From the IMG/VR virus record IMGVR_UViG_3300028186_000155: DNA of 64,000 bases. The stretch is one strand, 5' to 3'. The stretch is from a virus. Lineage: Duplodnaviria > Caudoviricetes. The notes below the pieces were generated by a model. The model saw nothing but the letters and a program-made list of their open reading frames with translations. It searched no databases and was not told the origin of the DNA. Positions 21,584 to 22,587 of the stretch are shown one piece after another; positions within the stretch are counted from its first letter, which is position 1, and every line of letters begins with the position of its first letter. The position numbers were made by a program, and so were the translations under genes.

Positions 21584-22204
21584 TTAACGGAGACGGATCA
21601 ACTGACCGGGGAAAATCAGGTCAGGGTTTTCCAGTTTGTTGATGCGTGCGAGTTCGCGCCAGCAAATGCCGAAAGTGGCGCCGATTTGGGACAACGTGTC
21701 GCCTGCAACCACACGGCAGTAACCGAGTATCAGACACTGGATCATACCGGAATAGTTGCGCACGTTGGTCAGCACTTCCTGCGGCAACGACAGGTCTTCC
21801 TTGTCGATCAGTTTCTGAATAGTTTCAGGCAGATTGTCTGCAATAAAATCGTCAGACAGTGCCTTGGGTTCGGCTGGTTTCCACAGCTTGCAGTATTTCA
21901 ACACGTTCGGCACGTCGGCGGAATCAACAGGCAACACCACAAGGCAAGTTGGCTCGGCGTTGCAGATGGTGTTTTCGTGGCCCGCGTGATGAATCAGCGT
22001 TTCCTGAATTTTCAGGAATTCGCGTTGAGTTGCACGCACCACAACCTTGCGGAAAGATTCGTCAAACCATTTGAAATAATGGGCACGTTGGGCGCCGTCG
22101 AGGCAGGTGAACTTGTCGTGTGCAGTCAGCACCGAATGCGCGACCAGTGTAGGCACCATGTAATCGGGCGCGTCTTCACGTACAGCGATGTACATTTTCA
22201 ACAT
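21584..22204 (-). CDS. Pth2 (peptidyl-tRNA hydrolase 2)-like domain fused to LysM
   Basis: KMYIAVRED, VAHSV, KWFDESFRKVVV, TCLVVLP; C-terminal VVAGDTLSQIG...INKLENPDLIFPGQLIRL. Confidence 0.75.
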   Translation of the reverse strand: MLKMYIAVREDAPDYMVPTLVAHSVLTAHDKFTCLDGAQRAHYFKWFDESFRKVVVRATQREFLKIQETLIHHAGHENTICNAEPTCLVVLPVDSADVPNVLKYCKLWKPAEPKALSDDFIADNLPETIQKLIDKEDLSLPQEVLTNVRNYSGMIQCLILGYCRVVAGDTLSQIGATFGICWRELARINKLENPDLIFPGQLIRLR

Positions 22205-22587
22205 TTTGGGAGTCCATGACAGAAAGAAACTTCGTGTTTTTTCGCGTAGACGTGGGCCAGCCGACGACTACGGAACCACAGTTGAATCATCGGGGCCTTG
22301 GTGAACGTGACGTATGCCCCTTTGCGCCCACTCTCGACCGTGTAACGCGGTGCCGTGTTGTGTTCCGTGATCAGCTGCGCCCAATCCTGCAAAAACTTCA
22401 GCATTTTCGAATCAGGATTTTCAATGGCTTCGCACGTCGATTCCATGGGCGCTGGGGAGTTTGCCCAATCCATGCGCTGGATCTTGAACGGTTGAAAACT
22501 CATACCGTGCGGCGCGTTTTCGAAATTGACCGTGAACTCTTCGGGCCGTTTGCCGTAATCGGAAAATCCATCTGCCACGAAAATCAC
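22198..22587 (-). CDS. Truncated tail-tube (T4 gp19-like) fragment fused to a small basic module
   Basis: GTG start at 22587 (GTGA overlap, AAGGA upstream); RPEEFTVNF...FQ and ENPDSKMLKFLQDW resemble gp19 RPNLFQVEI...FQ and ...QKFVDW (recalled). Confidence 0.55.
   Translation of the reverse strand: MIFVADGFSDYGKRPEEFTVNFENAPHGMSFQPFKIQRMDWANSPAPMESTCEAIENPDSKMLKFLQDWAQLITEHNTAPRYTVESGRKGAYVTFTKAPMIQLWFRSRRLAHVYAKKHEVSFCHGLPKC

Follow-up and report, generated by a model that had tools for sequence, protein, structure and literature searches.

A small protein conserved in HRDY3-like jumbo phages as a candidate truncated and exapted derivative of the tail tube protein

We analysed a 64,000-nucleotide stretch (the window) of the IMG/VR virus record IMGVR_UViG_3300028186_000155, which comes from a Pseudomonas-type jumbo phage whose 314,224-bp genome has direct terminal repeats, and focused on P0002, a protein of 129 amino acids encoded on the minus strand at 22198-22587 (G000:41334-41723 in whole-genome coordinates). 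The P0002 family is undescribed in the libraries searched, and our data moderately support the view that it is a truncated, exapted tail-tube derivative. From sequence comparison, we consider it fairly probable that residues ~15-80 of P0002 descend from a gp19-type tube protein. For the protein as a whole, we slightly favour a two-part cytoplasmic protein in which a remote derivative of the phage's own tube, without the stacking hairpin, is joined to a basic module. If the tube ancestry is true, a virion building block would have been turned into a soluble, conserved, non-structural protein, minus its polymerising elements and plus a basic module.

Two collinear blocks of P0002 match gp19-type tube proteins

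The phage's own tube gene (G000:95562-96071) encodes 169 amino acids. Its product scored 26.7 bits against PF06841 (cut-off 28.2), carries the annotation 'tail tube' in Pseudomonas phage HRDY3, and its family profile matched the T4 gp19 structures with an E-value of 6.6e-11. P0002 had been singled out in a first-pass annotation, which quoted stretches of this open reading frame (ORF) as parallels to strings of T4 gp19. The quoted residues are identical to the translation, and the T4 gp19 strings agree with the RB27 gp19 sequence. BLASTP of P0002 against the own tube gave two weak collinear matches, which are the two blocks named beforehand, and HMMER and hhalign recovered the same blocks in the same order.

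Block 1 covers residues 13-38 (22474-22551, minus strand), supported by BLASTP, hhalign and HMMER, and aligned in HMMER with positions 16-41 of the tube hidden Markov model (HMM). Block 2 covers residues 51-79 (22351-22437, minus strand), a strand followed by a long helix with the invariant W69; it was supported by hhalign, HMMER and the modelled helix, and aligned with tube HMM positions 75-104. Both blocks recurred in unchanged order in close and distant family members when these were aligned by HMMER.

We compared the family with two tube profiles, a clade profile of 38 sequences and a broad profile consisting of the clade and eight diverse gp19-type tubes (from Erwinia, Burkholderia, Pelagibacter, Vibrio, Listeria and T4-like phages). 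Against the clade profile, various P0002 alignments gave hhalign probabilities of 21-47% (E 1e-3 to 2e-4). Against the broad profile, the five closest members reached 72% (E 3.5e-5) and an eight-member alignment reached 73% (E 3.1e-5), and the alignment to tubes spanned P0002 residues ~15-80. The hhalign score climbed once the tube profile was made more diverse, as tends to happen with true remote homologues. A lack of any profile similarity to tubes had been named beforehand as speaking against a tube origin. Such similarity is present; it is weak but specific, with hhalign probabilities of 65-73% and P0002 as the top non-tube match in HMMER.

The conserved residues also fell into register. 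The family-invariant F22, P26 and W69 aligned with tube F25 (more than 90% conserved), the invariant tube P29 and the invariant tube W94, respectively, and P45 of the family lay at most one position from the tube invariant P47. The modelled helix at residues 58-76 coincided with the tube helix block. A core similarity with conserved residues in register is therefore seen by profile-profile comparison, and we rate this support as moderate and not decisive.

The tube similarity of P0002 is specific

Several controls were used to assess specificity. Column shuffles scored against the clade profile did not exceed 25.8, and none of 404 reached the observed 27.9-30.2. Six-column block shuffles against the broad profile peaked at 32.4, and none of 500 reached the observed 33.3-36.1. 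Reversed profiles scored 11-13. As a sister-family control, 12 families of the operon around P0002 were built identically, each from the window copy and two or three homologues from HRDY3 and the relatives L004 and L006. The P0002 family scored 33.7 (65%, E 6e-5), and the 11 others scored 8.5-19.2 (<1%).

Unfiltered HMMER with the broad tube profile was then run on 1361 ORFs of the own genome together with the 14 family members (1375 sequences). The true tubes ranked first and second and family members third to fifth, with 12 of the 14 members in the top 39. P0002 was the best of the 1360 non-tube ORFs in its own genome (8.9 bits, E 0.076 in 1375 sequences). In a single-sequence test with the 1362 genome ORFs of at least 70 amino acids, the tube profile placed P0002 16th, and the P0002 profile placed the tube 8th, with the longest aligned stretch. 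Single members compared with the tube by BLASTP or Smith-Waterman gave weak matches, the best coming from the HRDY3 homologue, whose score was reached by 2 of 300 shuffles.

By score, the P0002 family lies under every curated threshold for membership of PF06841 and has no HMMER-significant tube match. A search of the genome with the clade tube profile found the two true tube genes only, and PDB sequence-profile searches with the family alignments returned chance matches to ERp44 or nothing. Taken together, the original observation of tube-like blocks is confirmed, and the tube-like reading is moderately supported by profile evidence that is specific but weak.

The second true tube gene is a gp19-like paralogue directly after the tube gene (G000:96087-96635, equal to L002:1801-2349), with E-values of 0.0054-0.028 against PF06841 and 1.9e-7 against the clade tube profile. 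Its product could serve as a tube initiator or as another tube protein. No similarity was found between this paralogue and P0002.

The stacking hairpin has no counterpart in P0002

Tube proteins have a loop of near-constant length (25-28 residues), which forms a protruding beta-hairpin in R-pyocin FIIR2 and T4 gp19; the hairpin passes under the neighbouring subunit and ties one subunit to two of the next disk (PMC6088184). In phage P1, the hairpin at residues 52-77 of the 169-residue tube protein is a plug inserted into the next ring (PMC10304247). The first-pass annotation had noted a shorter spacing between the two blocks of P0002 and interpreted it as loss of this hairpin. The shorter spacing was borne out, as the distance from anchor F22 to anchor W69 is 47 residues in P0002 versus 63-71 in 21 gp19-type tubes. 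The hhalign alignment contains a gap of 21-23 columns in P0002 between the two blocks, at the position of the ring-stacking hairpin. At this deletion site, a short linker (residues 43-49; 22441-22461, minus strand) stands in place of the ~25-residue tube hairpin, and the invariant hairpin residues of the tube family (E55, E57, L58, G60, H61, K62, R68 and T70) have no counterpart in P0002.

Other family members have spacings of 51-63 residues, and some of them thus keep a loop of tube-like length, though one that lacks the hairpin motif of tubes. These alignments indicate that the shortening is lineage-specific: the proposed hairpin loss stands for P0002 and its closest relatives, where the gap falls at the published hairpin site, and does not extend to the whole family. 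The long-loop members P0045 and P0055 were also aligned by eye to the tube hairpin, but this alignment found no support.

A basic module stands where tubes have their C-terminal strands

The C-terminal half of P0002 had also been described as replaced, and our results agree with this: the C-terminal part, about a third of the protein, could not be aligned to tubes and forms a basic beta-beta-beta-alpha module of its own in the model. Attempts to carry the tube alignment past residue ~80 gave no stable result, and the register shifted with the settings. The strands of the tube C-terminal beta-sandwich (the W/F-P-T block and the final strand) were not matched in P0002, and the region models with a basic helix. 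We delimited this beta-beta-beta-alpha(-beta) module to residues 80-122 (22222-22350, minus strand) from the model, the invariant columns and the isoelectric point (pI). It holds the strongest conservation in the family, with the motif F-R-S-x-R-L-A-x-V-x-A-K. The charge is split along the protein, with the last 55 residues at pI 9-11.5 in 13 of 14 members (10.0 for P0002 residues 75-129) and an acidic N-terminal part at pI 4-6.

AlphaFold with 14 sequences gave a mean predicted local distance difference test (pLDDT) score of 64 and was confident for residues 58-118 only. The modelled elements are a helix at 58-76, strands at 82-86, 91-95 and 98-105, and a helix at 108-117, with pLDDT values of 86-91 at residues 81-120, 65 at 71-80 and below 55 at 1-57. 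With four sequences, the pLDDT was 42 and the model was unusable. The topology modelled for residues 58-122 resembles that of the beta-beta-beta-alpha domains HicB-N, UPF0150 and YaiA and of the alpha-beta-beta-beta-alpha dsRBD. Several chains of these kinds were among the best structural matches, and the matches to the small domains (YaiA, HicB-N and UPF0150) were at noise level. A RelE/ParE-like or dsRBD reading of the module had no profile or fold support. A complex prediction for tube and P0002 gave no answer (score 0.00) and speaks neither for nor against binding.

P0002 is a conserved syntenic gene outside the tail module

Word-indexed and exhaustive HMMER searches identified 14 members of the P0002 family, with identities to the query as low as 22-30%, all from metagenomic or phage contigs of up to ~316 kb. 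An identical 129-residue protein is present on seven contigs of the public collection, the longest of 313,999 bp. HRDY3 (313,683 bp), with ~78% DNA identity to parts of the region, is the only named relative in the phage collection, and its P0002 homologue is XDJ15185. No P0002 homologue was found in Erwinia phage pEa_SNUABM_13 or in BcepSauron, and HRDY3 is not mentioned in the literature searched.

The gene call for P0002 rests on the ORF and its translation, a GTG start codon (translated as M) and the homologues. A Shine-Dalgarno-like AAGGA, read directly from the sequence, lies 8 nt before the GTG (22596-22600, minus strand). Within the string GTGA, this start shares bases with the stop codon of the upstream gene, which encodes a DNA-binding protein of the helix-turn-helix (HTH) type HTH_37 (22584-22859, minus strand; Pfam PF13744, 29.5 bits, and phrog_2339), and this overlap indicates that the two genes are translationally coupled. 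The P0002 stop overlaps by 7 nt the ATG of the downstream gene (21584-22204, minus strand), which encodes a protein with LysM (Pfam, E 8e-10) and PTH2-like (E 1.3e-4) parts and matches phrog_5822 (E 3e-49). A 145-residue version of P0002 from an upstream GTG was rejected because the homologues do not back the extended start.

The position of P0002 between sbcC-like and sbcD-like genes is kept in HRDY3, L004 and L006, all three relatives examined. The gene order in them is sbcC-like, a small HTH gene, the P0002 homologue, PTH2-like and LysM genes, and sbcD-like; the small HTH neighbour is HTH_37 in the window and in L006. The same place in all three relatives indicates that P0002 is a conserved syntenic gene of the phage clade. 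It lies ~54 kb from the sheath and tube genes (G000 ~94-96.6 kb) and is not in the tail module.

The 8-mer ACTGTAAA occurs 18 times in the window versus 1.2 expected, and its strand tracks gene direction. Its sites include 3152, 11117, 20458 and 31041 on the minus strand and sites from 46537 to 63466 on the plus strand, and the strand switches near 45-46 kb, the point of divergent transcription. Genome-wide there are 50 copies, with none at 80-100 kb, the tail-gene region. We take ACTGTAAA as a probable promoter element of the phage. The copy closest to P0002 on its upstream side (31041-31048, minus strand) would serve the long minus-strand unit with sbcC and P0002. TAATTTA was considered as a 'late' motif and set aside, as its 19 copies genome-wide are not visibly enriched.

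Two small ORFs of the operon show sheath-like stretches. The ORF at 20471-20911 (minus strand, 146 amino acids) matches PF17482, the C-terminal domain of the sheath, below the threshold (19.4 bits, E 0.0011). A basic module common to this ORF and P0002 was not established (16-37 columns only, hhalign P 0.01-0.025, rank 6 of 1362, nothing by BLASTP), and neither its sheath match nor its basic-motif match is significant by itself. The ORF at 23178-23363 (minus strand, 61 amino acids) has 7 of 16 residues identical to the phage's own sheath near the sheath C-terminus (E 0.009 in a single comparison).

Tube ancestry weighed against an unrelated origin

A number of results weigh against a tube origin of P0002. 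The ORF was picked by eye from the very features to which the profiles respond, and the test therefore lacks full independence, a concern that the genome-wide ranking answers in part. The family has no Pfam, PHROG or NCBIfam match even at E-values of up to 10, and its HMMER scores against the tube profile are just 2-9 bits. The hhalign result depends on the alignment, with a 14-sequence MAFFT alignment giving 21-25% and the distant subfamily alone 1%. The spacing across the family is 47-63 residues, and some members keep a loop of near tube length, so that the absence of the hairpin is not family-wide. The proposed tube fold was not confirmed by structure prediction: the AlphaFold model gives no usable fold for the tube-like N-terminal part, and Foldseek (PDB, BFVD) and VIA-align found no tube protein. 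As the tube-like half has no confident model, these fold searches neither confirm nor exclude a tube fold.

These points leave room for the strongest alternative, which we still consider somewhat unlikely: P0002 would have no tube ancestry and would be a novel small alpha/beta protein, its two short tube matches having arisen by chance or convergence. Its function would then reside in the basic alpha-beta-beta-beta-alpha C-terminal part, binding nucleic acid or a partner, possibly together with the HTH_37 regulator. The best conservation in the C-terminal module and not in the tube-like part would fit such a protein, as would the acidic and basic halves, the tube similarity that is weak in distant members and unmatched by any curated family, and the conserved HTH neighbour with its start/stop overlap. 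However, the similarity is specific, as none of 904 shuffles, 11 sister families and 1360 other ORFs reached it. It is also collinear and grows with the diversity of the tube profile, the invariant residues of the P0002 and tube families coincide, and the small-domain fold matches are at noise level by the tool's own guidance. If the similarity should nonetheless be spurious, P0002 would still define an orphan family that jumbo phages conserve and that is coupled, within an sbcCD operon, to an HTH regulator.

Compared with gp19-type tubes (PF06841; T4 gp19, PDB 5W5F and 5IV5; the own tube), P0002 shares the collinear blocks, an N-terminal strand and a strand-helix unit, with coinciding invariant F, P and W. 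It differs in its length of 129 versus 162-179 residues, in having a basic module and no hairpin where the tubes have a 25-28-residue stacking hairpin and C-terminal strands, and in its place in an sbcC-sbcD operon, whereas tube genes stand beside the sheath gene.

Possible roles of a non-polymerising tube look-alike

In the tube-derived reading that we slightly favour, P0002 would be a cytoplasmic protein in two parts, conserved among the HRDY3-like jumbo phages of ~300 kb. Its tube-derived part would retain the first strand or strands, the strand that precedes the helix, and the one outer helix. The lineage of P0002 would have lost the ~25-residue protruding hairpin that locks tube rings together, and the tube C-terminal strands would have been swapped for an unrelated, strongly basic beta-beta-beta-alpha module. 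P0002 would be transcribed with the sbcC/sbcD DNA-metabolism genes and not with the tail module. With no hairpin, no C-terminal strands and a site outside the tail module, P0002, if tube-derived, could not serve to build the tube; it would instead stay soluble, resembling part of the tube subunit but unable to polymerise. Its acidic half, the tube-like one, might bind a recogniser of unassembled tube, such as a host sensor, the own sheath or an assembly factor. Another contact, with nucleic acid or some acidic partner, might be made by the basic module; the coupled HTH protein might act alongside it or be contacted by it.

The first-pass annotation had proposed a competitive inhibitor of tube sensing, a role that is purely conjectural. 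As it had stated, the monomeric tube protein triggers the defence protein DSR2 (PMC10981675). In a more specific form of this proposal, P0002 would be an anti-defence decoy, made before the late tube burst, that occupies a tube-monomer sensor without activating it. We regard this as improbable. The monomeric tube is a proven immune trigger and phages carry small inhibitors of such sensing (PMC10981675, PMC11087589). P0002 resembles a non-polymerising tube fragment, its gene belongs to a unit that has an enriched motif of its own and is not part of the tail module, and small ORFs of the operon have weak matches to the sheath C-terminus. However, PADLOC models gave no match to the P0002 family. 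The family is conserved and syntenic across the clade down to ~25% identity, not patchy like most anti-defence genes, and its most constrained part is the basic, non-tube module. Such conservation throughout the clade, the constant gene order and a non-tube module under stronger constraint speak mildly against an anti-defence gene of the usual kind. No Pseudomonas sensor that recognises gp19-type tubes is known to us. The inhibitor DSAD1 of phage SPbeta, which acts on DSR2, is like P0002 only in the proposed role, as a small phage protein that blocks the response to tube monomers, and to our knowledge it has no homology to tube proteins. DSAD1 is described as an allosteric inhibitor that binds the DSR2 sensor domain in its open form, and the known trigger of DSR2 is a siphophage tube (PMC10981675).

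A broader proposal would take P0002 as a look-alike of the own tube, made from a presumably non-tail operon among fragments of tail proteins that include sheath-like mini-proteins. It would either blind sensors of unassembled tail proteins or, with the HTH regulator, report the state of tail assembly to gene expression; we give this similarly little credence. Should it be true, P0002 would represent a new class of phage protein, a structural-subunit mimic for signalling or counter-defence. Bacterial immunity is known to respond to unassembled tube, capsid and portal proteins as alarm signals, and a phage-made look-alike of such a signal would be a simple, so far undescribed counter-measure or regulatory device. 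The cultured relative HRDY3 carries the homologue XDJ15185, so the question is open to experiment.

Least probable, in our view, is a tail-assembly helper, a diverged tube paralogue that would bind tube or sheath, block early polymerisation, or cap or seed the tube: P0002 is a core gene of the clade with sheath-like fragments in its operon, and tube-fold paralogues with special assembly roles exist (T4 gp48 and gp54, such paralogues of contractile tails acting as initiators), but its gene lies ~54 kb from the sheath and tube genes inside a DNA-metabolism unit, the phage already has a second tube paralogue beside the tube gene, and nothing in tail proteins corresponds to the basic C-terminal module.

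Neighbouring genes and minor observations

The sbcD-like gene (19122-20165) and the sbcC-like gene (25178-27487), both on the minus strand, are separated by ~5 kb with ~15 small, tightly overlapping genes. This arrangement with intervening small genes is kept in HRDY3 and two metagenomic relatives.

No export signal was noticed in the PTH2-LysM protein (gene at 21584-22204, minus strand). Its HRDY3 version is labelled 'endolysin', apparently just because of its LysM domain. L006 has separate genes for the PTH2-like position and for LysM, with two small genes between them, and in L004 a gene of 121 amino acids follows the P0002 homologue and is itself followed by a LysM gene.

A 148-residue antisense ORF lies opposite P0002 (22216-22662, plus strand), and a 199-residue antisense ORF lies opposite the tube gene. 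Long antisense ORFs are frequent in this genome, and a gene caller that takes the longest ORF discards real genes, including those of P0002 and the tube.

Further downstream, the gene at 17724-19004 (minus strand) encodes a protein of 426 amino acids rich in Lys, Ala and Pro. It contains a unit with G-P-G-R-P-x-G-S-K-N-K-P-K repeated three times and many K-K-P-A-A repeats, and it has the look of a DNA-binding protein of the histone-H1 or AlgP type. The repeats of its gene yield many false terminator-like hairpins on the opposite strand.

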